Source of the DNA: Kiritimatiellia bacterium
Lineage (GTDB): Bacteria > Verrucomicrobiota > Kiritimatiellia > RFP12 > DVOR01
DNA: 64,000 nt
Direction: 5' to 3'
Assembly (NCBI GenBank): GCA_031553315.1
Contig: JAVBLT010000001.1
Coordinates: 4,139 to 68,138 of the forward strand
Shown here one piece after another: positions 8,253-61,026 of the stretch. Made by a program: the position numbers and the translations under genes. Under the pieces are notes generated by a model. It saw only the letters and a list, made by a program, of their open reading frames with translations, made no database searches and had not been told where the DNA came from. The first letter of the stretch is position 1; every line of letters begins with the position of its first letter.

Positions 8253-9650
8253 ATGCTTCTTTTCGTCGCCGTCAACGCCAAATACACCCACCCCGCCTAC
8301 GCCGCCCGCAGCCTCCGCGCCAACCTTCCCCCCGGCATAGAAGCCGATATCCTCGAAGCCGACCTCGCCGCCACACCCTTCCAGCTCGCCGAAGCCATCC
8401 ACGCCCGCCGCCCCACCCGCCTCGCCTTCTCCACCTACCTCTGGAACGCCCCCCTCCTCCGCCAGACCGCCCGCATCATCCGCCGGATCGCCCCAGACCT
8501 GCCCATCCTCTTCGGCGGCCCCGAAATCACCCCCGACACCGCCCCCCGCTACCAGGATTGCGCCGACTTCCTCCTCATCGGCGAAGGCGAAACCATCCTT
8601 CCCCAATGGGCCCTCAACCCCGCCGCCTTCCCCCGCGTCATCCACGCAGACCCCGTCGACACCGCCACCCTCCGCATCCCCACCCACCTCCACACCGAGA
8701 CCGACATCGCCCAAAAACGCACCCTCTACCTCGAAACCACCCGCGGCTGCCCCTACTCCTGCGCCTACTGCACCTCCGCCAACACACAGCTCCGCCCCCT
8801 CCCCCTCCAAACCCTCCTCCCCGCCATCGACGCCTACCTCGCCCGCGGCATCCGCTCCTTCAAATTCCTCGACCGCTCCTTCAACGCCCTCCCCGACCAC
8901 GCCGCCGCCATTTTACAACACATCCTCGCCTCACCCCACGCCCCCCGCCTCACCCTCCACTTCGAAATCCACCCCCGCCACCTCCCCGCCGCCCTCAAAA
9001 CCCTCTTCACCCAATGCCCCCCCGGCATGCTCCACCTCGAAGTCGGCATCCAGACCCTCAATCCCGCCGTCTCCCAAACCATCGGTCGCGGGGCCGACAC
9101 CGAGACCGCCTTGGAAAATCTCCGCTACCTCACCCGCCACACCGGCGCCGACATCCACGCCGACCTCATCTTCGGCCTTCCCGGCGAAGACGAAGCCTCC
9201 TTCGCCGCCGGCTTCAACCGCCTCATGACCGAATGCCGCCCCGCCGAGCTCCAGGTCAACCTCCTCAAACTCCTCCCCGGCACCCGCCTCCTGCGGGAAG
9301 CCCGCCTCCACGGCCTGCGCCACAACCCCGCCCCCCCCTACGAACTCCTCTCCACCCCTCACATGGATTTCGAGACCCTCACCCGCCTCCAGCGCTTCGC
9401 CCGCGCCTGGGAGCTCACCCACAACCGCGGCCGCTTCCCCCGCGCCGCCGGGCTCCTCCTTCAGCACAACACCCCCTACGCCGCCTACACCGCCCTCGCC
9501 GACCGCATCCACCTTGCCGAAGGCCGCCTCCACGCCCTGGGCCTCCCCACCCTCGGCCGGCACCTCGAAGCCACCCTCCTCGCCCTCGGCCACCCCTCCG
9601 CCGAAGTCACCGCCGCCCTCCACGCCGATCTCAACGCAAAACCCCTTTAG
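8253..9650 (+). CDS. B12-binding domain radical SAM protein (DUF4080-type C-terminus)
   Basis: 465 aa; N-terminal B12-binding-like fold (LLFVAVNAKYTHPAYAARSL), radical SAM core, C-terminal helical DUF4080-like region; stop codon TAG is the first triplet of MITE copy A. Confidence 0.7.
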   Translation: MLLFVAVNAKYTHPAYAARSLRANLPPGIEADILEADLAATPFQLAEAIHARRPTRLAFSTYLWNAPLLRQTARIIRRIAPDLPILFGGPEITPDTAPRYQDCADFLLIGEGETILPQWALNPAAFPRVIHADPVDTATLRIPTHLHTETDIAQKRTLYLETTRGCPYSCAYCTSANTQLRPLPLQTLLPAIDAYLARGIRSFKFLDRSFNALPDHAAAILQHILASPHAPRLTLHFEIHPRHLPAALKTLFTQCPPGMLHLEVGIQTLNPAVSQTIGRGADTETALENLRYLTRHTGADIHADLIFGLPGEDEASFAAGFNRLMTECRPAELQVNLLKLLPGTRLLREARLHGLRHNPAPPYELLSTPHMDFETLTRLQRFARAWELTHNRGRFPRAAGLLLQHNTPYAAYTALADRIHLAEGRLHALGLPTLGRHLEATLLALGHPSAEVTAALHADLNAKPL

Positions 9651-9810
9651 AGCATGTTTCGAATGAGATTTCCGGATCCTTCGAAGGTGATTTTGGGTTT
9701 TGACAAACGCTTTCAGATCGCCGCAGCAACGCTACGGCGATCTGAAAGCGTGAAGTTCAAACAGGAAAAGCACCGAGAAAAATCGAAAAGATCAATCGAA
9801 ATTTGCTCTA
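9648..9810. mobile_element. MITE copy A (IS630-derived, 163 bp, TIR TAGAGCA..TTTC.ATTGA)
   Basis: Left end TAGAGCATGTTTCGAATGAG, right end GATCAATCGAAATTTGCTCTA (inverted); internal hairpin GATCGCCGCAGC-AAC-GCTACGGCGATC; ~90% identical to copy E. Confidence 0.6.
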
Positions 9811-10569
9811 ACGAAATTCAAGGCGGTTGCCGATGGCGTTGTTGCGGAGCAGCGCTTCGGGAGAGGGAACGGGATCACAGGCGGTCTCAAGCCAGCGGTG
9901 AGCGCGGCGGGCGGGAGCGTCGTCGGCGATCAGGCGATAGAGAACGGCGAGGTTGAGCGTGCGCCCGTTCCAGGCGGTGAGGGCGGGGTCGGCGCCCCAG
10001 GAGCCCTCGGGAAGCTGGGTTTCAATGAGCGCGGCAAGCGCGCGGTCAAGCGGGGCTTTGAGCGTGGCGTCGCCGCCGGTGTGGCGGATGAGCAAGGCGT
10101 AGGTCACGAGGGCGTGGTTGTAAGCGCCGGCGAAGCTTCCATTGGGCTGTTGGATCGCCAGGAGAGCGCGCTGGGCACGCTCCACGGCGAAGCGGGTCGC
10201 TTCGGCGCCGGTGTTGAGCCGCAGGAGGGCAAGCGCGGTCAGACCGGGGGCGTAGGCGGCGGGGGCGGGCGGATCCGGGAGCCAAAAACCGTCGGCCTGC
10301 TGAGCGGCGAGCAACCGCTCAAGCGCCGGGTCGGCGGGCTTTTCGCCGGCCTTGGGCATGAAAAGCGGCAGCACAAGCAACAGAACCAACAGCACCAGCG
10401 CGGCGGCGATAAAAGGATAAAACCGGGGAGAGCGGCGCACGCCGGCTTCGGCTTTCACGGCCTCCATAATGCGCCGCGTGAGCTCGGGGGAATAGGTGGC
10501 GGTGGCGCGGCGGTCGATGGTTTTGCGAAGAGTTTCGAGATCGGGGTCGTTTTCGGGTGTTTTGTTCAT
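9808..10569 (-). CDS. putative membrane-anchored anti-sigma factor with C-terminal prenyltransferase/terpene-cyclase-like repeats
   Basis: 253 aa; ATGA overlap with the upstream ECF sigma gene; single TM helix (FIAAALVLLVLLLVLPLF); stop codon is the terminal CTA of MITE A. Confidence 0.5.
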   Translation of the reverse strand: MNKTPENDPDLETLRKTIDRRATATYSPELTRRIMEAVKAEAGVRRSPRFYPFIAAALVLLVLLLVLPLFMPKAGEKPADPALERLLAAQQADGFWLPDPPAPAAYAPGLTALALLRLNTGAEATRFAVERAQRALLAIQQPNGSFAGAYNHALVTYALLIRHTGGDATLKAPLDRALAALIETQLPEGSWGADPALTAWNGRTLNLAVLYRLIADDAPARRAHRWLETACDPVPSPEALLRNNAIGNRLEFR

Positions 10570-12082: not shown

Positions 12083-12669
12083 TTACGCTTGCGGTCTTGC
12101 CAGCGTGCGCAGCCACGGCCACCAGCGGGTGCCGAGGAAGAAAGCGGCATAGCCCAAAAATATGCCGGGAGTGTTCAGGATAACATCGTCGACATCCACA
12201 TAGCGCCCGACGAAAAGCTGTGCCGCCTCAATGCCGCACGCAAACACCAGGCACACCGCAAGCGTTTTCCAGAGGTTTTGAAAACATCGCCAGAACAACG
12301 GCAGACCGCACGCGATCGGCGCAAAGAAACCGAGGTTTCCAAGGATGTTGACCAGAAAACGCCAATGGTCAATCATCCCTAAAAAGATGCGGATTTCATG
12401 AAAAGGCCATAGGTTGATCCCCCACCCCGAATGGAGCCGCCCCCATGCGAAGGAAGGCATCTCCAGGAATGGAATCTTTTGCTGAACCACAAAAACGGTG
12501 AGCGTGAGGATGGCGGCAATGTAGAGCGCCCAGGCGGCCAATGCCGCCTCGCGCCAGGGGTCGACGGGGTCTTTCGTCGCCGCGCGAAAGCGTCCGCGAA
12601 CATAAAAATAAACAGCCCCGGCGAAACAAACAAGCCAAGGCAGGGTATGGAAGGTGTAGACCTTTTCCA

Positions 12670-12670
<1 letters not shown>
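12083..12670 (-). CDS. VanZ-family membrane protein
   Basis: 195 aa; conserved VanZ motif GIEAAQLFVGRYVDVDDVILNTPGIFLGY. Confidence 0.7.
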
Positions 12671-14052
<1,382 letters not shown>

Positions 14053-15243
14053 TTACGATTTGTTTTTGGTGAGGATTTCGCGGCGGGACGTGAAGCGCTC
14101 CATCAGCCGTTTGGCGCGGAGCTGCTCGGGGAAGCTCGAAGGCGAGAGCGATTGCGAAAAACTTTCCAGAATCCGCTTTTGCTCCGAAGTCAGATACTGC
14201 GGCGTCTCCGCGCAGACCCGCACATGCAGATCGCCCGCCGGGTGGCCGTTGAAAGCCGGCACACCCTGACCGCGCAGGCGGAAGACATGGCCGTTGGCCG
14301 AGCCCGGCGGAATCTTGATTTTGCCCTCGCCGTTGGGCGTCACCACCGGAAGCTCGCCGCCCAGCGTCAGCAACACAGGCGAAACCGACACCTCACAGGC
14401 CAGTTCCTGACCCTCGCGGTGAAAGAACTCATGATCCCTCACATGAAACTCCACATGGATATCGCCCCGCGGCCCGCCGTTGACGCCGCCATTGCCCTCG
14501 CCGGGAATGCGCATCACATTGCCGGAATCCACCCCCGCCGGAATCTTCACCGCAATCGTGCGGCGATTGCGGTTCTGTCCGCTGCCGCGGCATTTTTTAC
14601 ACGGCGATTTGATAACCGAACCCTGACCGCGGCACACCGGGCACGTCTGCTGCATCATCATGCCGAAAAGGCCGCCGTTGACCGCGACCGAACCCCGGCC
14701 CCCGCATTGCTTACAGGTTTCCTTCGAAGATCCCGGCTCCGCGCCCGAGCCGTTGCACCCATCGCAACGGTCACTGACATCAAGCTCCACCGTGCGCGTG
14801 CTTCCGAAAAGCGCCTCTTCGCAATCAATCTCCATCGCACAGCGGATCGACTCCCCCTTCTGAGGCGCATTGGGATCCGGGCGCCGACGCGCCCCCCCCC
14901 CCCCGCCAAAATTGAAACCGCCCCCTCCGAAAAAGGAATTGAGAATGTCATTGATATCCGCGCCGTGCGTGAAATCGCGATTGAAATCGAAACCGCCCGC
15001 GCCAAAGGCCGACTTCATGCCATCGTGCCCGAACTGGTCGTATTGCTGCCGCTTCTTCTCATCGCTCAAGACCTCATAGGCCTCGCTGATTTCCTTAAAC
15101 TTCGCCTCCGCCTCCGCATTCCCCTGATTCTTATCCGGGTGGTACTGCATCGCCAGCTTTCGGTAAGCCTTCTTCAACTCATCGGCCGTAACTGCGCGCG
15201 CGACGCCCAGCACCTCGTAATAATCACGTTTCTTCGCTGCCAT
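14053..15243 (-). CDS. dnaJ: chaperone DnaJ
   Basis: J domain DYYEVLGV...YHPDKN, Gly-rich linker (a C12 run on the plus strand), CxxCxGxG zinc-finger repeats. Confidence 0.9.
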
Positions 15244-15249
15244 AACAGA

Positions 15250-15855
15250 TCAACCCTCTTCCGTTCCGGCCGGGCTGCCCGCCGAAACGATCACCTGCGC
15301 CGGCCGGATCAACTTGCCGTCCAGGCGCCACCCCTTGCGAAACTGCTGCACAACCTCATGCTCCGGCACCGTTTCCGACGGCACCGCCTGAAGCGCCTCA
15401 TGCAGAGCCGGGTCAAAGACCGCCCCCTCCGCATCAACCACCTCAACACCGGCCTCCGTGAGCACATTCAAAAACTGCGCGCCAACCATTTTAACACCCT
15501 TCGTGAACGCATCCTCAGCCTTCACATTCGCCAGCGCCAGCTCCAAATGGTCAAACACCGGCAACAGCTTTTCGAGCAAGCCCTCATTGGCCCGCTTGAT
15601 TACCTCCTCGCGTTCGCGGATCTGCCGCTTGCGCATATTGTCGAAATCGGCCAACAGGCGCACATAGCGCTCCTTCGCGGCGGCAAGCTCCCCCTGCGCG
15701 GTTTCGAGCGCCTTTTCGGCATCATCCGCCCGCTTTTCCAACACCTTGAGCGCTTCGGGTTCAGCCTCCGCGCCCTCAACGGCCTCATCAACCGGTTCCT
15801 GTCCCACATCCGGCTGTTTGTGCGGCGTTTTTTCATCGGATTTTTTCTTGAACAT
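15250..15855 (-). CDS. grpE: nucleotide exchange factor GrpE
   Basis: 201 aa; RLLADFDNMRKRQIRERE GrpE signature; directly upstream of dnaJ with no dnaK between them. Confidence 0.85.
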   Translation of the reverse strand: MFKKKSDEKTPHKQPDVGQEPVDEAVEGAEAEPEALKVLEKRADDAEKALETAQGELAAAKERYVRLLADFDNMRKRQIREREEVIKRANEGLLEKLLPVFDHLELALANVKAEDAFTKGVKMVGAQFLNVLTEAGVEVVDAEGAVFDPALHEALQAVPSETVPEHEVVQQFRKGWRLDGKLIRPAQVIVSAGSPAGTEEG

Positions 15856-15883
15856 GATTCCTCCTCCGGCGTTTGGCCTTCAA

Positions 15884-15971
15884 TGGTGCCCGGGGGGGGA
15901 TTCGAACCCCCACGCCTTGTTAAGGGCTGCGGATTTTAAGTCCGCTGTGTCTGCCATTCCACCACCCGGGC
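15884..15971 (-). tRNA. tRNA-Leu (anticodon TAA)
   Basis: reverse complement GCCCGGGTGGTGGAATGGCAGACACAGCGGACTTAAAATCCGC...long extra arm...GGGGGTTCGAATCCCCCCCCGGGCACCA. Confidence 0.85.
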
Positions 15972-16509: not shown

Positions 16510-16673
16510 TAGAGCAATTTTCAAATGAGAATTCCTGATTTTATGAAAGCGATTTTCTTTTTGACGAACCCTTGAAAGGGAAGCGTAGCCGCGCTGCGAC
16601 AACCTGAAAAGGGTGAAGTTCAAAAACAAAAAGTACCGAGAAAAAGCGGAAAGATCAATCGAAATATGCTCTA
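16510..16673. mobile_element. MITE copy B (164 bp)
   Basis: TAGAGCAATTTTCAAATGAG ... GATCAATCGAAATATGCTCTA; the terminal CTA is the stop codon of the minus-strand antiporter gene. Confidence 0.55.
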
Positions 16674-17705
16674 TCCCTTCCAGCAGAGATAAGCCGTGTA
16701 AACACCGTAAAGCCCCAACAGAACCGCGCCGTGGAAGCGGTTGAGGCGCCCCATGCGCCCCTTGCTGAAACGGTAGCAAAAAGCGAAAAGCAGCAGTGTG
16801 ACCACATTCATGACCGGCAAGTCGCGCAGAATGATCACCGGTTCGACCGGCATCCCCGATTGATCCGGCCAGACCAGCCCCGCCACGCCGACCACGGCCA
16901 GCGTGTTGAACAGGTTGGAACCGATAACGTTGCCGATGGCCAGATCGTCTTCCCCCCGGAAAACCGCCACAATCGACGAAAAAAGCTCGGGCAGCGATGT
17001 GCCCACCGCCACCACCGTCAGCCCGATAACCAGCTCGGAAACGCCAAAGGCCCGCGCAAGCGCCACGGAACCGTTCACAAAAAAACGGGAGCTGATCACG
17101 AGCGCGGCCAGCCCGATCACCGACCAGACAATCGCATGGCGGCGGGAAATCAGCGGCTTCGCGGCCGCGGAAACGCCAAAAGGCTCCTGCGCGAGAATGT
17201 CGAAAGTCTGCACCCGCGTTTGCCGCACCGTGCGGATCATCAGCACCGCAAACACAAGCAACAGGATCACCGCATCGATCTTCGAGAGCATGCCGCCATC
17301 GACCAGGCCCACCGAAAGCAGGCTCACGCCCGCCAGCAGCGGCAGCTCCTCCGTCAGCACCTGCGAGTGCACGCGCATCGGCTTGAGCAACGCCGCCAGA
17401 CCCAGAATCAACGCGATGTTGACGATGTTGGAGCCATAGGCATTGCCTAGCGCAATCCCCGGCTGGTGCCTCAGTGAACTGATGGCCGAAACCATCATCT
17501 CCGGGGCCGACGTTCCGAATCCGATGATCACCATGCCGATCACCAGCGGCGATATTTTAAAATGGCGGGCAATCGCGGCCGAACCGGCCACAAAACGATC
17601 CGCGCTCCACACCAGCACGGCCAGGCTGACCCCCACTTCAATCAAAGCAAGCGCAAAAGGCGACATAGAACCTCCAGTATGTGCCCGAAAGTGTACTTGA
17701 CCCAC
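16671..17705 (-). CDS. CaCA-family sodium/calcium antiporter (YrbG-like)
   Basis: 344 aa; duplicated alpha-repeat motifs GTSAPEMMVS and GTSLPELFSS with GNAYGSNIVNI / GNVIGSNLFN. Confidence 0.85.
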   Translation of the reverse strand: MGQVHFRAHTGGSMSPFALALIEVGVSLAVLVWSADRFVAGSAAIARHFKISPLVIGMVIIGFGTSAPEMMVSAISSLRHQPGIALGNAYGSNIVNIALILGLAALLKPMRVHSQVLTEELPLLAGVSLLSVGLVDGGMLSKIDAVILLLVFAVLMIRTVRQTRVQTFDILAQEPFGVSAAAKPLISRRHAIVWSVIGLAALVISSRFFVNGSVALARAFGVSELVIGLTVVAVGTSLPELFSSIVAVFRGEDDLAIGNVIGSNLFNTLAVVGVAGLVWPDQSGMPVEPVIILRDLPVMNVVTLLLFAFCYRFSKGRMGRLNRFHGAVLLGLYGVYTAYLCWKG

Positions 17706-18111: not shown

Positions 18112-18588
18112 ATGGCTGAGAAAAAACCACGCGCCGCCTCGGCAAACCTTGCAGTCAACCGCAAGGCTTTGCACGATTACGCCGTGCTGGAAAAATTCGA
18201 AGCCGGAATCGAGCTCGTCGGCACCGAAGTGAAAGTGCTGAGAAACGGCGAAGGCGGCCTCCTCGGCGCCTGGTGCAAAGTGGAAAACGGCCAGCTGTTC
18301 ATCCACCAGGTTCGCATCCCGCCCTACGCCTACGGCAACCGTTTCAATCACGACGCGCTCCGCACCCGCCGCCTGCTGATGCACAAGCGCGAGATCCTCC
18401 GCCTCCAGGCCAAGACCGAACAAAAAGGCCTGGCCTTGATTCCCCTGCGCATCTACCTCACGCCGAAAGGGCTGATCAAAATCGAGGTCGCGCTGTGCCA
18501 GGGCAAGAACCAGTATGACAAACGAGAAACAGTCAAACGGCGCGAAGCCGATCGCGACGCCCGGCGGGCAATCGCGCATTTCCGTTGA
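18112..18588 (+). CDS. smpB: SsrA-binding protein
   Basis: 158 aa; HDYAVLEKFEAGIELVGTEVK...YGNRFNHDALRTRRLLMHKREI... is a canonical SmpB. Confidence 0.9.
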   Translation: MAEKKPRAASANLAVNRKALHDYAVLEKFEAGIELVGTEVKVLRNGEGGLLGAWCKVENGQLFIHQVRIPPYAYGNRFNHDALRTRRLLMHKREILRLQAKTEQKGLALIPLRIYLTPKGLIKIEVALCQGKNQYDKRETVKRREADRDARRAIAHFR

Positions 18589-18603: not shown

Positions 18604-18840
18604 ATGATCCCCATCGCATTTTTACAGAACTTCAGCGGCCCCGAAATCCTCGTGGTCCTCGTCGTCATCATCGTGCTTTTCGGTGCCAAGAAGATTCCCG
18701 ACATCGCCCGCTCCCTCGGCCGCAGCATGGGCGAATTCAAAAAAGGCCAGAAAGAAGGCGAAGATCTCGCCCGCCAGACCGCCGAGCAGAAAGCCGTGGA
18801 ACCTCCCGCCGAAAACAGCGACAAACCCGCCGCCCAGTAG
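18604..18840 (+). CDS. tatA: twin-arginine translocase subunit TatA/E
   Basis: 78 aa; single TM helix then amphipathic helix FGAKKIPDIARSLGRSMGEFKKG; stop codon TAG is the first triplet of MITE copy C. Confidence 0.85.
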   Translation: MIPIAFLQNFSGPEILVVLVVIIVLFGAKKIPDIARSLGRSMGEFKKGQKEGEDLARQTAEQKAVEPPAENSDKPAAQ

Positions 18841-18904
18841 AGCGCCTTTCGATTGAAAAGGAAAAGCGCCCAAAAAAGCGGCCTGTTCAATCGAAACATG
18901 CTCT
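18838..18904. mobile_element. MITE copy C (minimal 67-bp, palindrome-like version)
   Basis: TAGAGCGCCTTTCGATTGAAAAGG ... CCTGTTCAATCGAAACATGCTCT; both TIR cores present, internal region reduced. Confidence 0.45.
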
Positions 18905-18958
18905 TGTATCCGTTTTAAATCGTAGAAGCAACCCCTGAAAGTGGAGCGAAAGCAACGT

Positions 18959-27458: not shown

Positions 27459-28422
27459 TCCTCACCGGCCCCGACTGGGCCCTCCTCCGCCCCCACCCCC
27501 CCACCTGCAAGCTCCTCCCCCCCATCACCCAACACGACCAGCCCGCCCGCGCCGACAAAGCCTACGAAACCCTCGCCACCCTCTACGTCGCCCTCACCCG
27601 CGCCGAAAACGCCCTCTACATGATCCTCCCCCCCCCACCCAAAACAGAAACCACCATCCGCCCCGCCACCCTCCTACGCGAGACCCTCGCCGGCCAAACC
27701 CAAGGCACCTACCCCTCCGGCGCCGAAATCCACTACCGCCAAGGCGACCCCCACTGGCACCAAACCATCGCCCCCCTCCCCACAGCCACCCCCGCCCCAC
27801 CCTTCGACCCCGCCACCCTCAACCTACCCCCCGGGCACCCCCGGCCCAAACGCTTCGAGCCCTCCGCCACCCCCCCCCACCCCCAAACCATCGCCAGCCT
27901 CCTCGACCCCGCCCAAATCGCCATACGCGATTTCGGCACCGCCATCCACCGCCTCTTCAGCCGCATCCGCTGGCTCACCGACACCGACCTCGAAACCCAG
28001 ATCGCCACCTGGAAAGCAACCGCCCCCGAAGACCCCCAAATCATCCGCGACGCCGAAACCCAATTCCGCCACGCCATCACCCAGCCCCCCATCCGCGCCG
28101 CCCTCACCCCCCCCCCCACCCCCTGCACACTCTGGCTCGAAACCCCCTTCACCACCCGCCTCAGCCCCAGCCAATACATCGGCGGCCGCTTTGACCGCGT
28201 CCACATCCACCCCCACCGCGCCGAAATCTTCGACTACAAAAGCAGCCTCGTCGACACCCCCGCCCAAGCCCGCCACGCCGCCCAAACCTACCACCCCCAA
28301 ATGGCCCTCTACCGCCTCGCCCTCGCCCGCCTCCTCAACCTCCCCCCCCCCGCCATCACCGCCCACCTCCTCTTCACCCGCACCGGCCAACGCATCACCC
28401 TCACCTTCCAGGATTGATCGCC

Positions 28423-29343
28423 ATGCACCTCACCACCACCCCCGCCCACACCGGCACCCGCCTCGACGCCACCCTCGCCGCCCACCTCCCCCACTACCCC
28501 CGCCCCCTCCTGAAAGACGCCTTCGCCGCCGGCCTCATCCACGTCAACAACCGCCCCGCCCCCAAAGGCCTCATCCTCCAGCCCCACATGACCATCGACC
28601 TCAGCCGCCTCCCCCCCCCCGCCAGCCAATTTGCCCACCCCAACCCCGACCTCCCCCTTCCCCTCATCCACCAAGACCCCCACCTCCTCGCCTTCAACAA
28701 ACCCGCCGGCATACCCTGCCACCCCAACCGCCGCACCGAGCGCCACACCCTCGCCAACGCCATCGCCCACCACTACCCCACCCTCCTCGGCCTGGGCGAC
28801 ACCCCCCTCATGACCGGCATCCTCCACCGCATCGACACCCACACCTCCGGCCTCACCCTCGCCGCCCGCACCCCACACGCCTACACCCACCTCCGCCGCC
28901 AATTCCAGGCCCACACCATCGAAAAAATCTACCACGCCCTCGTCATCGGCACCCTCACCCGCCCCGCCACCCTCCGCCACAACCTCGCCCACCACCCCAC
29001 CTGCCCCGGCCGCATCATCAACGCCGACCACTGGCACGCCCCCCCCCGCCCCATGCCCGCCACCACCGCCTACACCCCCCTCAGCCACCACACCCTCAGC
29101 GGGCGCCCCTACACCCTCCTGGAAGTCACCATCCACACCGGCGTCACCCACCAGATCCGCGCCCAGCTCAGCTTCAGCGGCCACCCCATCCTGGGCGACA
29201 CCCGCTACGGCGCCCCCCCCCACCCCGCCTTCCCCCGCCACTTCCTCCACGCCAGCGCCCTCACCCTCCTCCACCCCCAAACCAGCCACCCCATCACCCT
29301 GCGCGCCCCCCTTCCCCCCGACCTCCAGCAACTTCTCACCTGA
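28423..29343 (+). CDS. RluA-family pseudouridine synthase
   Basis: HQDPHLLAFNKPAGIPCHP and LHRIDTHTSGLTLAART (catalytic Asp motif); overlaps the helicase stop. Confidence 0.8.
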   Translation: MHLTTTPAHTGTRLDATLAAHLPHYPRPLLKDAFAAGLIHVNNRPAPKGLILQPHMTIDLSRLPPPASQFAHPNPDLPLPLIHQDPHLLAFNKPAGIPCHPNRRTERHTLANAIAHHYPTLLGLGDTPLMTGILHRIDTHTSGLTLAARTPHAYTHLRRQFQAHTIEKIYHALVIGTLTRPATLRHNLAHHPTCPGRIINADHWHAPPRPMPATTAYTPLSHHTLSGRPYTLLEVTIHTGVTHQIRAQLSFSGHPILGDTRYGAPPHPAFPRHFLHASALTLLHPQTSHPITLRAPLPPDLQQLLT

Positions 29344-29393: not shown

Positions 29394-29469
29394 GCCGGGT
29401 TAGCTCAGTTGGTAGAGCAGCTGATTTGTAATCAGCAGGTCGTCGGTTCGAGTCCGGCCCCCGGCTCCA
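29394..29469 (+). tRNA. tRNA-Thr (anticodon TGT)
   Basis: GCCGGGTTAGCTCAGTTGGTAGAGCAGCTGATTTGTAATCAGCAGGTCGTCGGTTCGAGTCCGGCCCCCGGCTCCA. Confidence 0.85.
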
Positions 29470-29552
29470 AATAACAAAATAAAAATCAATTATTTAATCA
29501 AAACAAGCCCAAATAAAAACAGTCAAGCAATTCAAAAATTTCTGACAGCTTC

Positions 29553-30656
29553 TAGAGCAACTTTCTATTGAAATGTCCTTGCCTGGCATGATCTGAACCA
29601 CCCTTCTGTATCAAGACTTGTAACCCTTGAAATCGCCTCCGTAATGGCATCAGACAAGAGCTCTTGTGTTCGTGCGGCCAAACCGCGTAACGTTGTTTTG
29701 ACCTTGCTCCACATCTTTTCAATCGGGTTGAAATCAGGACTGTAAGGCGCAAGAAAGAGAACACGGGCACCACAATTTTCAATGATCACTCTGGCTTGAG
29801 GATCAAGGAGTGTGCTGAGATCGTCCATCACAACGACATCGCCCGGGCGCAGTTTGGGCGACAAAACGTACTCAACACAGGCGCGAAACGCGGCTCCATT
29901 CATGGCTCCCGGCAATTCCATCACCGCCGTTGAACCATCCAGCCAGACGGCGCCAATGAGCGTGGTCGTACACCCATGCCCGTGCGGCGCGTGGGCAAAG
30001 AGGCGTTCGCCGCCGTAAGCCCATCCGCGCAAACGGGTCATGTTGGTTTTCGCACCGGATTCATCGATAAAAATCAGGTGTTCGGGATCGAGCGTTTGGA
30101 GTAATTGGAGCCACAGGAGCGCGCCGGTCGAATCGAAACACCAATCCGCCACTTCCCACGGCAGCCACAGCGAGAGGCGCACCCGGTCGCCGAGGGCTTG
30201 GCGCTGGGCAAGGGTGCGCTGCACGGGCCGCCCGGTCTCGGGGTCAACGGCGGCGGCGCACCGGTCGGCCTGAACCCAGAGCCACTGGCACGCGGTGAGC
30301 GTTTCCGACACATCGAGCCAGAAATCGGCAATGCTTTTGCCGGTGCCCGTGCAGTCGGCCTCAAACGCGGGGTCGATGCCCGCGCGCTCGATCTCGCGGC
30401 TGAACAGATACTGATTGATTTTGGCGGCCACGCGACCCGCGTCGTTGACCACCGCCGCGCGGTTGCGGCGGCCGGTGCACCCCGAGGCGGCGAAAGGGCG
30501 GTTGCCCGTCCACGACGCCTCGCTTTCATTGGGCGCCCTCCACAGGCGGGCGTCTACATACGCCCTGCCGCCGTGCAGCGCCAAAACGTTCAAGACAAGC
30601 TGATCCTTGCGCCCGGCCAGAATCCGGTGCCGCCGCTTCGCGATGATTCCCTGCAT
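29553..30656 (-). mobile_element. IS630-family insertion sequence (one recognisable end at 29553; the other end not identifiable)
   Basis: terminal sequence TAGAGCAACTTTCTATTGAAATG at 29553 shares the TIR core of the five MITE copies; contains the transposase ORF below. Confidence 0.6.
29565..30656 (-). CDS. IS630/Tc1-mariner family DDE transposase
   Basis: 363 aa; IFIDESG (first D) and APYSPDFNPIEKMWSKVK (the classic IS630 D-34-E region). Confidence 0.85.
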   Translation of the reverse strand: MQGIIAKRRHRILAGRKDQLVLNVLALHGGRAYVDARLWRAPNESEASWTGNRPFAASGCTGRRNRAAVVNDAGRVAAKINQYLFSREIERAGIDPAFEADCTGTGKSIADFWLDVSETLTACQWLWVQADRCAAAVDPETGRPVQRTLAQRQALGDRVRLSLWLPWEVADWCFDSTGALLWLQLLQTLDPEHLIFIDESGAKTNMTRLRGWAYGGERLFAHAPHGHGCTTTLIGAVWLDGSTAVMELPGAMNGAAFRACVEYVLSPKLRPGDVVVMDDLSTLLDPQARVIIENCGARVLFLAPYSPDFNPIEKMWSKVKTTLRGLAARTQELLSDAITEAISRVTSLDTEGWFRSCQARTFQ

Positions 30657-30658
30657 GG

Positions 30659-31183
30659 TTACCCTTTCACAATCCGTTCGATCATCTTTTCAAAGTCTTC
30701 GGTGATTTTTTTTTCGCTGTCGGCCAGTGCCCGCTCGATGAATTTATGGTCGGCGCGGTCGCCCTTCGCCCGCGTGCCGGGGCCGCGTTTGCGCCAACTG
30801 GTACCCTTTTCATTGTGGATTTTCGCGGCGTATTTGCCCGCCTCGCTGTTGGCGGCCACAAAAACCTCGGCCTCAAGGCTGGGATACACCTTCTGTTCGA
30901 TGCTCCGCTCAAGACCTCGGGGTTTGGCGCGGCTTGTGGCGCGGTTGTTGCGCTTACCTTTGCGCTTGGTTTTTTTGAGAGCGTTTTTCTGTGCCTGCGT
31001 GGGGCTTCGGGGGGCGTTGCGCCGCGCCTCGCGCTGCACGAGCAGAGCGGCTTTCGCAAGTTGATCATTGACCCTTTCGAGCAATTTCTTGCCCTTGAAG
31101 CCCAATTGCGCGACCAATAAGCCGACGTCTAAACCTGTGGTGTAAATCTCCATGCCATTGGCCACGGTGTCAACCCGGGGCAC
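30659..31183 (-). CDS. phage-related protein, possibly an HK97-gp10-like head-tail connector (weak)
   Basis: 174 aa, Lys/Arg-rich middle; stop codon lies 2 nt from the transposase start; lies in the phage-remnant island. Confidence 0.35.
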   Translation of the reverse strand: MPRVDTVANGMEIYTTGLDVGLLVAQLGFKGKKLLERVNDQLAKAALLVQREARRNAPRSPTQAQKNALKKTKRKGKRNNRATSRAKPRGLERSIEQKVYPSLEAEVFVAANSEAGKYAAKIHNEKGTSWRKRGPGTRAKGDRADHKFIERALADSEKKITEDFEKMIERIVKG

Positions 31184-31198
31184 AAAAAAGCCGCCCGG

Positions 31199-31465
31199 TC
31201 AGGGGCGGCGGTTGAGGCGTGCGAGGCGTGATTGCTTCGGGTCGAAACCGATGAGATTCCATCGCTTCTTTTTTGGGTCGTACTCATACTCGGCGTCTTT
31301 TTCAACAAATTCTTTGATGCGCGCCTCGGTTACAGTCATATCAAGGTCGGGCTCATTTGCGAATCTCGCCATGCCGATAGCTTTATGAATGGCGAATGCC
31401 CGCGCGGGGTGGCGCCCCGTTCCGGCGGGAAGGGTACCCCAATCCTCTTTGTAAAGCCCGACCAT
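31199..31465 (-). CDS. small hypothetical protein immediately downstream of the MuF C-terminal module (candidate immunity protein); start uncertain (31465 ATG or 31582 TTG)
   Basis: 88-127 aa; lies in the same low-GC (~45%) segment as the MuF C-terminal domain; no motif. Confidence 0.3.
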   Translation of the reverse strand: MVGLYKEDWGTLPAGTGRHPARAFAIHKAIGMARFANEPDLDMTVTEARIKEFVEKDAEYEYDPKKKRWNLIGFDPKQSRLARLNRRP

Positions 31466-31529
31466 CTCATCGAAGTCGGCGTCTGTGTAGCCCAAATCCG
31501 GGCGAAAATCATAAATTAAATGCACGGAG

Positions 31530-32816
31530 TTACTCCTCTTTGTGGCGAAGCACCTTATACGACATTCCTGTTTCTTTTGCAACTCTTTTCCAAATCATAT
31601 TTCCTTCCAATATGTCACGTTCGGCTCTGGTTATCCGTTCGCTTGCCATTCGTTTGGAAAGGATTTCATTCACTTCTCTTTCCGCCTTCAAGTAGGATCT
31701 TGTGATGTCGTTTTCGTGTGGCCATTTTCCCTCACGGGTCATTACATAGTCGCGGCGAGGCGAAACCGCGCGAATCGAGCGCATGTTGCCATCTGCCGCC
31801 GTCACCACGTCCGCAAAGGAAAGACTGGTTCCGTATCCCATAAACTGCCCGGGGTGGTTGTGAACCATCGTCGCATCAACAAGTTTTCCAAACCACTCTT
31901 TTGGAAGTTTCCCGCCGTTTACGCCACTGCGCTTCCGGTCGAAAAGCATATTGCCGTTGGAATCCATCGCACTGAAATACTCGCACCCCTTCGATTTCAT
32001 GTAGTCGCGCTCACTGGCAATTTTAGCCTTCAGTTCCGGGCTTTCGATACGGTCTTCGGCGCGTTGCTTTTCAATTTGCTTCGCTTCCTCTTTTTCGAGT
32101 TTTTCACCGTATTTTCGCCCCTCCGCCGCCGCGCGTTCCCGTGCCTTTTCGAGTCGCGTTTCTTTTCGGTCATCTTCGCGCTGTTTTACGCGTTCCTTCG
32201 CTCCTGCTATTTTTTCTTTTCTCGCCGCTTCCCGCGCCTTCTTCGCTTCGCGCTCGGGGTCTTCGCCGCGGGCTCGCCCCGCCGCCGCCTTGAGGCCGCC
32301 GACAACCTCCTCGGCTCCGGCGCCGCGTTCCACGCGTAAAACGCCGCCCCTGCTACTCATGCGGAAGCCCGGCTGTTCGCCCTTCTTGGCATACTGGATG
32401 CGCGGCAGCTCGCCCTTGTAAAACGTATCAAGGTCTTCGGGCTTGGCCGATGCCGCCGCTTCCTTCGCAATGGCGCTGTCGAAAAGACCGTGGCGCACGG
32501 CGGTTTCGACTTCATCGCGGGCGGTCTGGCGCTCGGCATCTTGCCGCGAAAGCCCCCCCTCCTCCATGTGGCGCCGCGTGGTCAATTCGCGTTGGCGGCG
32601 GTGCATGGCCTCTTCATCGGCCATCTCATCGGCGGTCGGCTTGCCCAGCGCCGCCTGCCGCGCCATTTCGCCCGCTTCGCGCGGTTCGTCGATGTATTCC
32701 AGGCGATGGGTGCAGTTGGGGTGAAAGACTCCCGCCGCCTGCGCCTCGGCGTAGGTCGGGTAATCCTTCGATTTGCCCGCCACGCAGACGATTTGCCCCT
32801 CCCATGCGCCGCACAC
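31530..32816 (-). pseudogene. N-terminally truncated phage MuF/SPP1-gp7 family head morphogenesis protein with charged linker and divergent C-terminal domain
   Basis: begins (GTG) just before the MuF domain's terminal motif VFHPNCTHRLEY (hPNCRC-like); open frame upstream to 32990 lacks the rest of the domain; long E/K/R-rich linker; the last ~150 aa sit in a low-GC segment. Confidence 0.5.
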
Positions 32817-54305: not shown

Positions 54306-54660
54306 TGGTGGAGGCGGGGGGAGTTGAACCCCCGTCCGAAACAGCGTTATTCCAGCCTCTACGTGCGTGTTTCACCTTCAGTTCTCGCCGCGGGGAATGC
54401 CGGTGAACGGGCTCACCCCGCGGCCAGAAGCCACGATTCGTCAAGACTCGGACGCCCGGCTACCCGGCCTCCGGCAGGATCTGCTAGTCGTCGCGTTCCC
54501 GCTCAGCAGACATCGGCGGTTCAGCGTCGGGGCCTAATTAGGCCGCGAGGGCGAAGTTATCGTTCGCAGTTGTGTTGTTGATGGATGTTTTACGGGGCCA
54601 ACCATCATCCCCGGCACGCAACCAAAACTCCGACATGCCCCGTCGAAACCGGTCGCCCCC
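54306..54660 (-). ncRNA. ssrA: tmRNA (ssrA); encoded tag peptide ANDNFALAA
   Basis: 5' end GGGGGCGACCGGTTTCGACGGGG, 3' tRNA-like end GGACGGGGGTTCAACTCCCCCCGCCTCCACCA, tag ORF GCG AAC GAT AAC TTC GCC CTC GCG GCC TAA. Confidence 0.9.
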
Positions 54661-57426: not shown

Positions 57427-60051
57427 ATGATGAAACGTCTACTGAGCTGTGTTGTCCTCCTCTTCGCAAGCGGCCCCGCATTCGGTTATCCCGCGGTCGA
57501 AGGCCTCATCGGCCGCCTCCTGCCCGCCTATCAGGATCAGATCGTGTTGGAAGACAATCTCCCCCCCGCCCCCGGCGGGCGCGACGCCTTCATCATTTCC
57601 ACCGACGCCCGGGGCCGCCTCGTGCTCGGCGGCTCCAGCCCCGTGGCCCAGGCCTCCGCCCTCGGCTGGTACCTCCGCCACACAGCCGGTTGCGAAGTGA
57701 GCTGGGAAGGCACACAGCTCAACCTCCCCGAAAAGCTCCCCCCCCTCGCCCAGCCCATCCAAAAAACCACCCCCTACCGCTTCCGCCCCTACCTCAACTA
57801 CTGCACCCTCAGCTACTCCGCCCCCTTCTGGAACTGGCAACGCTGGGAGCGCGAGATCGACGTCATGGCCCTCAACGGCATCAACATGCCCCTCTCCCCC
57901 ATCGGCCTTGAAGGCGTGTGGTACAACATGCTCCGCCAATTCGCCTTCACCGATGCCGAAGCGCGCGAATTCCTCGTAGGCCCCGCCTTCTTCGCCTGGC
58001 AGTGGATGACCAACATCGAAGACTTCGCCGGCCCCCTCCCCAAAAACTGGATCGAGACCCACATCACCCTCGGCCAGCGCATCATGAAACGCCAGCTCGA
58101 TTTCGGCATGACCCCCATCCAGCAAGGCTTCACCGGCTTCGTACCCCTTAAAATGAAAGAAAAATTCCCCCAGGCCGCCATCAGACAGCAGCCCCCCTGG
58201 TGCGGAGCCTTCAAAGGCAGCGCCCAGATCGACCCCCTCGACCCCCTCTTCCCCAAGCTCGCCGCCGCCTTCTACGCCGAGCAGAAAAAACTCTTCGGCG
58301 CCCACGGCTACTACGGCGCCGACCCCTTCCACGAAAGCTCACCCCCCCAAGCCGGCGACGCCTACCTCACCGCCGTCGGCAAAATCATCTGCCAAGAAGC
58401 CCTCAAAGCCGACCCCGACGCCACCCTCTGCATGCAATCCTGGAGCCTCCGCACCCCCATCATGCGCGCCATCCCCAAAAACCACCTCCTCGTGCTCGAC
58501 ATCGGCGGCAAATGGGCCCGCTCAAACGCGTTCGACGGCTACCCCTTCACCATCGGCACCATCCACAACTTCGGCGGCCGCACCCGCCTCTTCGGCGATC
58601 TCGCCGGCCTTGCCCGCAACAGCTTCCTCAGCGCAAAAACCCAAAATCCCAACTGCATCGGCATGGGCCTCTTCCCCGAAGCCATCCAAAACAACCCCGT
58701 CTACTTCGGCATGATCTTCGACCTCATCTGGCGCGACACCCCCCTCGACATCGCCCAATGGATCCCCGCCTACACCGCCCGCCGCTACGGCACCCAAGAC
58801 CCCGCCATCGACCAAGCCTGGCGGCTCCTCCTCCAAAGCGTCTACAAACCCGGAACCGGCCGCGGCTCCTCGCTCATCTGCGCAAGCCCCGCCCTCAACA
58901 TACGCCAGGCAGACCCCAACGAAGGCTTCCGCATCGACTACAACCCCCTCACCCTCCTCAGCGCCTGGGAAACCCTCCTCAGCGCCAGCCCCAAAATCAA
59001 AAACGCCCCCGGCTACAGCTTCGACCTCGCCGACATCGGCCGCCAAGTCATGGCCGACACCCTCCTCGCCCTCCACTGCACCGTCGCCAACGCCTACCTC
59101 GACCAAAACCTCGCCGCCTACCGCCGCGCCGTCGAGACCTTTCACGCCTTCGCCCTCGATTTCGACGCGCTCATGAAAACCCAGCCCCTCTTCTCCTTCG
59201 AGAAATGGGTTCAGGATGCCCGCGCCTGGGGCGCCACCCCCGCCGAAAAAGACCTCTACGCCCTCAACGCCGCCCTCCAGATCACCCAATGGGGCGCCAA
59301 CGGCAACCACCGCCCCCGCATCTGCGAATACGCCTGGAAAGAATGGTCCGGCCTCATCCGCGACTACTACATCCCCCGCTGGGCCATCTTCCACAACGAG
59401 CTCGAAAAAAACCTCATCGCCGGCGCCCCCTGGCCCGATGAAGACAAAAACAAAATCAAAGACTGGGGCCGCACCGCCTACCGCACAACCCCCTTCATGA
59501 ACACCTTGGCCGACTTCGAAGACCCCTGGATCCGCTCCCCCCACATCTACCCCCCCCATCACCCCGGCGACACCCCCGCCGAAGCCGCCCGCATCCTCGC
59601 CAAATGGGGCAGCCACATCAAAGCCAGCCTCGCGACCAACCCCATCGACCAGATCCGCCGGATCCGCCAGCGCATCGCCGCGCGCGACACCACCGCCGAC
59701 CTCGGCGCCCCCGTCTTCACCTGGTCCAAAAAAGACTGCGCCCTCGGCTGGAAAACCTGGACTGTCGACATCACCCCCGCCATCATCCAAAACGGCCAAT
59801 ACGAAATCACCTTCCTCTACCAAAACGGCGGCGCCCGCCTCGACATCGCCGAAGCCACCCTCCTCCAAAACGGCCGCGAAATTTCCAAAGACGCCCACCC
59901 CGGATCCACCGGCGACATCAACACCGCCAACACCTACCTCCTGAGCCACACCGACCCCATCATCGGCGCCACCTTCACCCTCCAGGCCAAAGTCAAAACC
60001 CACGGCTCCACCAGCTCCAACGGCAAAATCTGGGTTCGCCTCCGCAAATAG
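57427..60051 (+). CDS. alpha-N-acetylglucosaminidase (GH89, NAGLU-like) with C-terminal F5/8-type C / CBM32-like domain
   Basis: 874 aa; signal peptide; YRFRPYLNYCTLSYSAPFWNWQRWEREIDVMALNGINMPL matches the GH89 N-terminal/TIM-barrel junction; stop TAG is the first triplet of MITE E. Confidence 0.8.
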   Translation: MMKRLLSCVVLLFASGPAFGYPAVEGLIGRLLPAYQDQIVLEDNLPPAPGGRDAFIISTDARGRLVLGGSSPVAQASALGWYLRHTAGCEVSWEGTQLNLPEKLPPLAQPIQKTTPYRFRPYLNYCTLSYSAPFWNWQRWEREIDVMALNGINMPLSPIGLEGVWYNMLRQFAFTDAEAREFLVGPAFFAWQWMTNIEDFAGPLPKNWIETHITLGQRIMKRQLDFGMTPIQQGFTGFVPLKMKEKFPQAAIRQQPPWCGAFKGSAQIDPLDPLFPKLAAAFYAEQKKLFGAHGYYGADPFHESSPPQAGDAYLTAVGKIICQEALKADPDATLCMQSWSLRTPIMRAIPKNHLLVLDIGGKWARSNAFDGYPFTIGTIHNFGGRTRLFGDLAGLARNSFLSAKTQNPNCIGMGLFPEAIQNNPVYFGMIFDLIWRDTPLDIAQWIPAYTARRYGTQDPAIDQAWRLLLQSVYKPGTGRGSSLICASPALNIRQADPNEGFRIDYNPLTLLSAWETLLSASPKIKNAPGYSFDLADIGRQVMADTLLALHCTVANAYLDQNLAAYRRAVETFHAFALDFDALMKTQPLFSFEKWVQDARAWGATPAEKDLYALNAALQITQWGANGNHRPRICEYAWKEWSGLIRDYYIPRWAIFHNELEKNLIAGAPWPDEDKNKIKDWGRTAYRTTPFMNTLADFEDPWIRSPHIYPPHHPGDTPAEAARILAKWGSHIKASLATNPIDQIRRIRQRIAARDTTADLGAPVFTWSKKDCALGWKTWTVDITPAIIQNGQYEITFLYQNGGARLDIAEATLLQNGREISKDAHPGSTGDINTANTYLLSHTDPIIGATFTLQAKVKTHGSTSSNGKIWVRLRK

Positions 60052-60180
60052 AGCAGATTCCGAATGAGATTTCCGGATTCTTCGAAGGTGATTTTGGGTT
60101 TTTACAAACGCTTGAGGTGAGCCGTAGCAACGCTACGGCGAGCTGAAAGGCAGATTGCAACGGAATCAAGCACGATACCC
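60049..60180. mobile_element. MITE copy E (left end defined, right end degenerate)
   Basis: TAGAGCAGATTCCGAATGAGATTTCCGGATTCTTCGAAGGTGATTTTGGGTTTT...GCCGTAGCAACGCTACGGCGAGCTGAAAG is ~90% identical to copy A over ~110 bp. Confidence 0.5.
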
Positions 60181-60195
60181 CCCCGCCCATTCAAT

Positions 60196-61026
60196 TCAGC
60201 GAAGAGCCGAATTTTGGTAGACGCGGACATAATCAATCACGAAATACGCCGGAAGAGCCGTTTTTTCGAGGCTCCCGCCGGTGCTGCCCATCGCGAGGTT
60301 GAGGAGCAGATACATCGGTTCGCGGAAGGGCTCTTTGGCGCCCTTGCCATCGGGATTGAGGGCTTCGGAGAGAGGCACGGCATTGAGCAGCTCCTCATCG
60401 AGATAAAGGCGGATGGATTCGGGCGACCAATCCATGCGCCACGTGTGGAAGGATTGATCCCAATCGTCGGCGCCGAAGTGGCTCATGGGGCGCTTGGCGG
60501 AGCGCCAGTTTTGCGCATAAGCTTCGCCTTCTTTCGCCCAGCAGAGGTTGGCGAGAATCGAATGGTGGTAGTATTCCATGAGGTCGATTTCGCCGCATTC
60601 AGGCCATGCGCGATGGGTGCCCAGGAACCAGATGGCGGGCCAGAGGCCGGTTTCGGCGCGGATTTTGGCGCGGATTTCAAAGCGCCCATACGTCCACGCC
60701 TGGCGGTGCCGGGTGGTGAGGCAGGCGGAGGTGTATTCAATGTTTTTGCGCGCGGCGCGCCAATCGTCTTTTTTTTCGGGGTTGTAGAGCGGGTTGGGGC
60801 GGATTTCCCTCCGGCCTTCAATCCAGAGAAAGCCGTTGGAGCAGGCGGCGTTTTCGGCCTGATACCACTGCATTTCCTTGTTGCGCGAATAGCCGATCTC
60901 GTAGTTCCACCTGGCGGGGTCGGGGGCGCCGGCGAGGTCGAATTCGTCGCTCCAGACCAAACGGTAACCGTCATCCGCCACTGCCGGCCCTGCAATGAAG
61001 AGGGCGAAAAACAAAAAAGCACGCAT
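60196..61026 (-). CDS. GH16 family glycoside hydrolase (laminarinase/beta-glucanase-like), secreted
   Basis: 276 aa from ATG 61026; signal peptide MRAFLFFALFIAGPAVA; catalytic motif GEIDLMEY (ExDxxE). Confidence 0.8.
   Translation of the reverse strand: MRAFLFFALFIAGPAVADDGYRLVWSDEFDLAGAPDPARWNYEIGYSRNKEMQWYQAENAACSNGFLWIEGRREIRPNPLYNPEKKDDWRAARKNIEYTSACLTTRHRQAWTYGRFEIRAKIRAETGLWPAIWFLGTHRAWPECGEIDLMEYYHHSILANLCWAKEGEAYAQNWRSAKRPMSHFGADDWDQSFHTWRMDWSPESIRLYLDEELLNAVPLSEALNPDGKGAKEPFREPMYLLLNLAMGSTGGSLEKTALPAYFVIDYVRVYQNSALR

Follow-up and report, generated by a model that had tools for sequence, protein, structure and literature searches.

Mobile elements of the IS630/Tc1/mariner type insert at TA dinucleotides and duplicate the TA. 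In bacteria, MITEs that are related to IS630 and end in TA are well established, RUP with its partner IS630-Spn1 being an example (PMC2229807). RUP elements are ~100 bp long, non-coding and A+T-rich, and their ends resemble those of a resident IS630-family IS; they are inserted at TA, and their mobilization in trans has been inferred from the similarity of the ends (PMC2229807, PMC3049150). The Correia/NEMIS elements of Neisseria and the ERIC elements of enterobacteria are likewise TA-bounded and ~100-160 bp long, form long hairpins when transcribed, and are often located in gene 3' regions (PMC2229807). Stowaway MITEs, which derive from Tc1/mariner elements, combine a TA duplication and the ends of a DD34E/D transposon with an unrelated interior (see also PMC3814204). 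Finally, BOX elements of S. pneumoniae can overlap the 3' extremity of a gene and provide its stop codon without evident truncation of the product, which has been reported for 36 CDSs (PMC3049150).

These are the features in which the known systems resemble (or, as regards the TA duplication, probably resemble) a family of five short repeats that is present in the stretch of 64,000 nucleotides analysed here (the window), which belongs to a Verrucomicrobiota MAG. The repeats share no sequence similarity with RUP, whose host is a Firmicute; they are 68-164 bp long, variable, and palindromic in their interior, and their partner IS comes from a subgroup of 1.0-kb elements that have two ORFs and TAGAGCA ends. 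RUP has been reported to insert preferentially into IS elements, whereas stop codons are the sites occupied by four of the five present copies. For Correia/NEMIS and ERIC elements, no cognate transposase is established, and their characteristic motifs (IHF site, RNase III processing, promoters) were not found in the present copies. Stowaway elements differ in their eukaryotic hosts and very high copy numbers, and are unrelated in sequence. BOX elements differ in their modular boxA/B/C structure and in not being TA-G-ended, so that their supply of stop codons is not explained by the target dinucleotide. We interpret the five repeats as decayed MITEs derived from an IS630-type element, and assign to this reading a probability of about 0.85. 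The repeats (copies A to E) and the related IS fragment are the following:

9648..9810, plus strand: copy A, 163 bp including the TA at each end; a near-perfect palindrome over the whole element
16510..16673, plus strand: copy B, 164 bp; full-length identity to A 76%
18838..18905, plus strand: copy C, 68 bp; both inverted repeats and a short right sub-terminal segment
57234..57328, plus strand: copy D, 95 bp; inverted repeats and a central core
60049..60175 (end approximate), plus strand: copy E; right end missing or decayed
29553..30100, minus strand: IS630-family fragment; C-terminal half of a DDE_3 transposase and the terminal repeat TAGAGCAACTTTCTATTGAA at 29553

The family had been noticed in an earlier note on this DNA, and the five copies were indeed found at the places given there. 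When the window was searched for the end motif TAGAGCANNTTTCNATTGA (TAGAGCA-NN-TTTC-N-ATTGA) with up to three mismatches, 11 matches were obtained, compared with 0.21 on average, and never more than 1, in 100 dinucleotide-preserving shuffles. Nine of the 11 matches correspond to both ends of A, B, C and D and to the left end of E. The match at 29553 is a sixth terminus located outside the five copies, and the match at 1947 (3 mismatches) is probably due to chance. In copies A-D, the left and right ends, compared without gaps, are complementary at 15-16 of 19 and at 19-23 of 26 positions, and the ends of copy D pair over ~26 nt; the ~22 bp previously given as the length of the terminal inverted repeats is therefore a fair estimate. 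The dinucleotide TA is found at both ends of A, B and D, while copy C is bounded by TA and TT, because its right end reads ...GCTCTT instead of ...GCTCTA (TA mutated to TT). The inverted repeat was said to occur at both ends of all five copies; this holds for A-D, but E is devoid of the right end. A decayed version of the latter might have been seen at 60223-60249 (alignment z ~3.4), but this candidate was ruled out, because the stretch encodes the conserved C-terminal motif AYFVIDYVRVYQ of a GH16 protein.

The copies differ considerably in length, as the earlier note had remarked, and yet their interiors are not unrelated. Copies A and E share 88% identity over a stretch of 101 nt, corresponding to the first 101 nt of E (~90% had been estimated). 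The central core of A, B and E (CTTGA..GAGCCGTAGCAACGCTACGGC / CTTGA..GAGCCGTAGCA.CG) is retained in D, although the hairpin that it forms, most distinct in A and E, is degenerate in B and D; moreover, the right sub-terminal segment of A and B is retained in C. Because the interiors are related in this way, the family looks like a deletion series that would have originated from an ancestral element of ~164 bp. A profile built from A, B and E recovered both D (E=3e-6) and C (E=9e-3), and detected no further copies in the window. The GC content of the elements is 39-50%, compared with ~62% in the window. The elements are non-coding, and a fully open frame is present in copy A only; no real homologue of the corresponding peptide was found among 1.84 billion representative proteins, the single match being an artefact due to a repeat protein.

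According to the earlier note, no protein gene describes the family. This is not the case, as a truncated IS630 transposase gene carrying the same terminus is present at 29553-30100. The terminus at 29553 is located 12 nt past the stop codon of the ORF 29565-30656(-), whose C-terminal half matches Pfam DDE_3, the transposase domain of the IS630 type (1.2e-25). The catalytic residues D, D and E can be aligned, and the second D is separated from the E by 34 residues (D...D(34)E), while the conserved His of the DNxxH motif is missing (MDDLSTLLD vs MDNLSSH). The relatives of this protein are two-ORF IS630 family transposases of ~180-210 aa, and the few of them that carry an organism name come from Kiritimatiellae and Limisphaerales MAGs. 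The best relative among 5.8 billion proteins, which is also the closest intact transposase, is 78% identical and comes from a different sample.

A contig from another sequencing run (L086), carrying a member of the protein cluster of this best match, contains a complete IS of 999 bp, bounded by TAGAGCA... and ...TGCTCTA. It is composed of the left end TAGAGCAGATTTATGTTGATTTTTCC (starting with TAGAGCAGATTT...), an HTH orfA, a run of eight A, a DDE orfB, and the right end ...TCATTAGAAAGTTGCTCTA (finishing with ...AAAGTTGCTCTA). The same domains are encoded by a second full-length relative (L003, from run SRR29082276), and in both elements the eight-A run is found at the junction of the two ORFs. 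The transposase of the 999-bp IS is 77-78% identical to the window fragment, and the fragment can be aligned with positions 453-999 of the IS (76% nucleotide identity); the window therefore holds just the 3' 55% of the IS, and the 5' 452 bp, comprising orfA and the other end, are absent. In MITEs A and B, the 30 nt at the left show 80-83% identity to the right end of the IS, and the 26-27 nt at the right ~81% identity to its left end. The interiors of the MITEs gave no match to the IS, and the likeness is confined to ~20-30 nt at each end.

Related transposases were found at 79 public genome loci, where they belong to elements of ~1.0 kb with TAGAGCA....CGATTGA at both ends; the hosts include Verrucomicrobiota, Kiritimatiellae, Planctomycetota, Alphaproteobacteria and Desulfovibrio. 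Since the ends recur across the 79 loci, the end motif is a property of this IS630 subgroup. At the locus of a Desulfovibrio MAG (L052; positions 191-309 and 9457-10541), a MITE of 119 bp has ends matching those of the local IS630-family element, and a partial copy of the same MITE adjoins the left end of the IS; in view of this pair, MITE formation seems to be recurrent in the IS630 subgroup with TAGAGCA ends.

A tRNA gene (29394-29466) is followed by an AT-rich spacer and then by the truncated IS, which forms, with a phage portal-like sequence (30101-30656), an in-frame fusion within the ORF 29565-30656(-). A Neck1-like gene (30659-31183) and a minor-head-like gene (31530-32816) come next, all of them on the minus strand. 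The region 29467-32816 looks like a degraded prophage or an element integrated at the tRNA gene.

It should also be noted that codon usage in the window is extremely lopsided. In many genes, for example 28414-29343, 8253-9650 and 57427-60051, 74-89% of the third positions are C and just 6-11% are G, which gives a local GC skew down to -0.53 and coding strands rich in runs of C. In other genes, for example 16671-17705 and 12541-15939, the third-position C fraction is just 0.3-0.4, so that two classes of codon usage coexist. The flank of the full-length IS from SRR29082276 (L003, 987-1070) shows the same NNC-rich coding style as the window, which suggests that a relative of the window organism hosts an intact copy of the IS.

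The five repeats are thus shorter than ~300 bp, non-coding and dispersed, and are bounded by terminal inverted repeats (with the exception of the right end of E). Their ends match those of an autonomous-type IS, represented by the terminus in the window and by both ends of the 999-bp IS. As to the partner, inverted-repeat-bounded elements of ~1.0-1.2 kb, as is usual for IS630, are represented by this IS and by the 79 loci, the copy in the window being partial. The matching ends and the IS630 relatives together bring the repeats within the usual definition of a MITE with the ends of a resident IS, a case that was first made for RUP and IS630-Spn1 (PMC2229807). The earlier description of the repeats as MITEs that have terminal inverted repeats and end in TA is therefore supported, and the family can now be tied to IS630.

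All five copies are located at the 3' ends of genes, and two of them lie between convergent genes. Four of the five (A, B, C and E) provide the TAG stop codon of five genes, including both genes of one convergent pair:

9648..9650, plus strand: stop TAG of the radical-SAM gene 8253-9650; composed of the target TA and the G that is the first base of copy A
9808..9810, minus strand: stop TAG of the gene 9808-10569; provided by copy A at its opposite end
gene 16671-17705, minus strand: stop TAG of the Na/Ca-exchanger gene; right end of copy B
gene 18604-18840, plus strand: stop TAG of tatA; left end of copy C
gene 57427-60051, plus strand: stop TAG of the NAGLU gene; left end of copy E

The gene 9808-10569(-) is supported by its third-position C content (0.55, vs 0.36 for the overlapping ORF on the plus strand), and tatA was identified by the model TIGR01411 (72.6 bits vs a cut-off of 53.9). 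Copy E occupies the gap that extends to 60196, the end of the convergent GH16 gene. The remaining copy, D, starts 10 nt past the TAA stop codon of an FMN-reductase gene, just before the terminator-like hairpin of that gene. As for the surroundings of copy C, the gene order is smpB (18112-18588, plus strand), tatA, and a gene encoding a 725-aa protein with a C-terminal GreA/GreB domain; a one-piece standard tmRNA (54306-54660, minus strand, 151 bits) is also present in the window.

The removal in silico of the element together with one TA gives ccccttTAacgaa, ccctgtTAtccctt and gcccagTAgtatcc, and restores the stop codons TAA (for both genes at A), TAA and TAG, respectively, with no change in position. 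Because the TA is followed by G at either end of the element, insertion into TAA or TAG rebuilds a TAG stop codon on either side. In the reconstructed site at copy A (9645-9650 / 9808-9813), the stop codons of the two genes overlap in the palindrome TTAA, which implies that the genes 8253-9650(+) and 9808-10569(-) once overlapped, with no intergenic spacer. Judging from sequence comparison, the genes at the copies are not shortened by the insertions: the NAGLU orthologues (61-62% identity) stop at the same residue and are not followed by an element, and the Pfam domain of the Na/Ca exchanger reaches within three residues of the end of the protein.

The window is depleted in TA (905 observed vs 2217 expected). 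Depending on gene calls, it contains 28-31 stop codons of the TAA or TAG type, against 84-189 intergenic TA. Under a null model that does not include selection against insertions in 5' regions, the probability of finding four of five sites on stop codons is P=0.001-0.017, and that of finding three of five is P=0.02-0.11. With five sites, and with selection against 5'-region insertions left out of the null model, this enrichment is suggestive only. Through its TA-G ends the MITE is compatible with stop codons, which is a property of modest interest; the idea that it even seeks them is tentative, and we consider it rather improbable.

The possible origin of these repeats deserves to be discussed together with the structures that they may form. 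Copies A-D fold as end-to-end hairpins, with a minimum free energy of -71/-78 kcal/mol for A (z -10/-12), ~-45 kcal/mol for B (z -4), -26 kcal/mol for C (z -5) and -35 kcal/mol for D (z -5), while E is at the level of its shuffles. A structural role in 3' UTRs is possible by analogy with Correia and ERIC elements, and the repeats might be kept because they are useful as RNA or DNA structures at gene 3' ends, for example as hairpins that stabilize mRNA, as barriers to transcription where genes converge or as sites of protein binding, so that their origin from a transposon would be secondary. This explanation, which can coexist with an origin as MITEs, would account for the high stability of the hairpins and for the position of all five copies at gene 3' ends, of two of them between convergent genes and of four on stop codons; in addition, MITEs of the Correia and ERIC type have been reported to affect mRNA processing (PMC2229807). 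The copies, however, have diverged freely, B folding far more weakly than A and E no better than shuffled sequences, and D lies upstream of an existing terminator-like hairpin instead of replacing it. Moreover, no Rfam family matched the elements at the gathering score (in E-value mode, copy A gave only sub-threshold generic hairpins), there is no U-tract, and terminator-like and promoter-like motifs occurred in consensus scans of the elements at chance frequency. We regard retention for such a role as unlikely. The palindromic nature of the elements, and the GTAG...CTAC motif within the core hairpin, are also reminiscent of REP/BIME-type palindromes, which are spread by a RAYT (IS200/IS605-like) enzyme and not by a DDE transposase. 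Nevertheless, the core hairpin is only found inside the MITEs and never standing alone, no clusters or arrays of repeats were found, and no RAYT-like gene is present among the annotated ORFs of the window; as the GTAG core was not seen outside the elements, the REP-like reading of the core hairpin was rejected. Considering also that the ends of the elements match IS630-family ends and that the flanks are TA, an origin of this kind is hardly credible.

According to another view, every one of the elements was left in place by a separate full-length IS630 insertion whose interior was lost later. A truncated IS with the same terminus is indeed present in the window, C and D are unlike A, B and E in length and content, and E has lost one end. 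On the other hand, A, B, D and E have a common core with no similarity to the interior of the IS, and C has a sub-terminal segment, again not derived from the IS, in common with A and B; independent deletions are not expected to leave four or five loci with the same non-IS interior, which makes this view very unlikely compared with that of a family of IS630-derived MITEs.

If the repeats are MITEs of this kind, their history may be envisaged as follows. The transposase would be composed of an HTH orfA and a DDE orfB product, joined at the eight-A run presumably by frameshifting, and would recognize terminal repeats of ~20-28 bp (TA-GAGCA..TTTC.A.TGA). The element would be excised and pasted into a TA dinucleotide, with a presumable duplication of the TA (which, formally, could also belong to the element), and the MITEs would be moved in trans by the IS630 transposase. 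Insertions into stop codons would be harmless and presumably neutral, hence the survivors in a gene-dense, TA-poor genome. The present copies are old: they are diverged, have undergone internal loss (C and D) or loss of one end (E), and lack an intact partner within the window.

The high density of copies had been taken in the earlier note as an indication of recent or ongoing mobilization, a reading that is not supported. The copies differ from each other by 12-24% or more, with no pair above 88% identity. As far as the window is concerned, this divergence, the truncation of E and the dead partner transposase, which is truncated and has lost its His residue, argue against recent activity; the same conclusion is suggested by the closest intact transposase mentioned above, which is only 78% identical and comes from a different sample. 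An intact partner IS is not known in the window organism.

The search for further copies proposed in the earlier note was not productive beyond the window. No copy was found in the 6 kb past its right edge, and the MITE profile detected none in 45 kb around the NAGLU orthologues of the nearest relatives, nor in 1.26 Mb around the related IS630-family elements of the 79 genome loci. One exact pattern for the left end of A, B and E gave no matches in a genome collection and a single one in a metagenome collection, which was attributed to chance because it lies inside an AraC-type gene of an AT-rich organism; in a viral collection, neither this pattern nor one for a right end had any match. It must be considered that the nearest relatives of the window organism are distant (protein identity 63% or lower). 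For NAGLU, the matches following a 100%-identical NCBI protein are at most 63% identical, and the closest named relative is a Puniceicoccales MAG (55% identity).

Additional data came from other assemblies. The sole other run with tatA, a second one of the same organism, has copy C unchanged, and thus did not provide the empty site that the earlier note had suggested looking for. In short-read assemblies from SRR23967709, one contig (L001) stops 27 nt into copy A (window position 9674) and another (L087) begins 63 nt into copy E (window position ~60111); breaks inside A and E fit a repeat that is present more than once in the genome. The second contig differs from the window by one base in copy E (GGCG vs GGTG); this may reflect strain variation, or else a k-mer taken over from a different copy.

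The elements described here are an ordinary kind of bacterial mobile DNA, and leave the present understanding of MITEs unchanged. Their value is mainly for annotation, as they explain five low-GC intergenic islands, the contig breaks in short-read assemblies of the window organism, and the common ...TAGAGCA 3' junction in five genes. In addition, a pair composed of an IS630-family IS and a MITE is now documented in a poorly sampled lineage of Verrucomicrobiota. The stop-codon pattern provides a small, testable idea on the way in which compact, TA-depleted genomes tolerate transposons that target TA. If a preference for stop codons beyond the effect of purifying selection were true, it would represent a target choice not described for IS630-type elements, and would offer a tidy account of the persistence of such elements in very gene-dense, TA-poor genomes.
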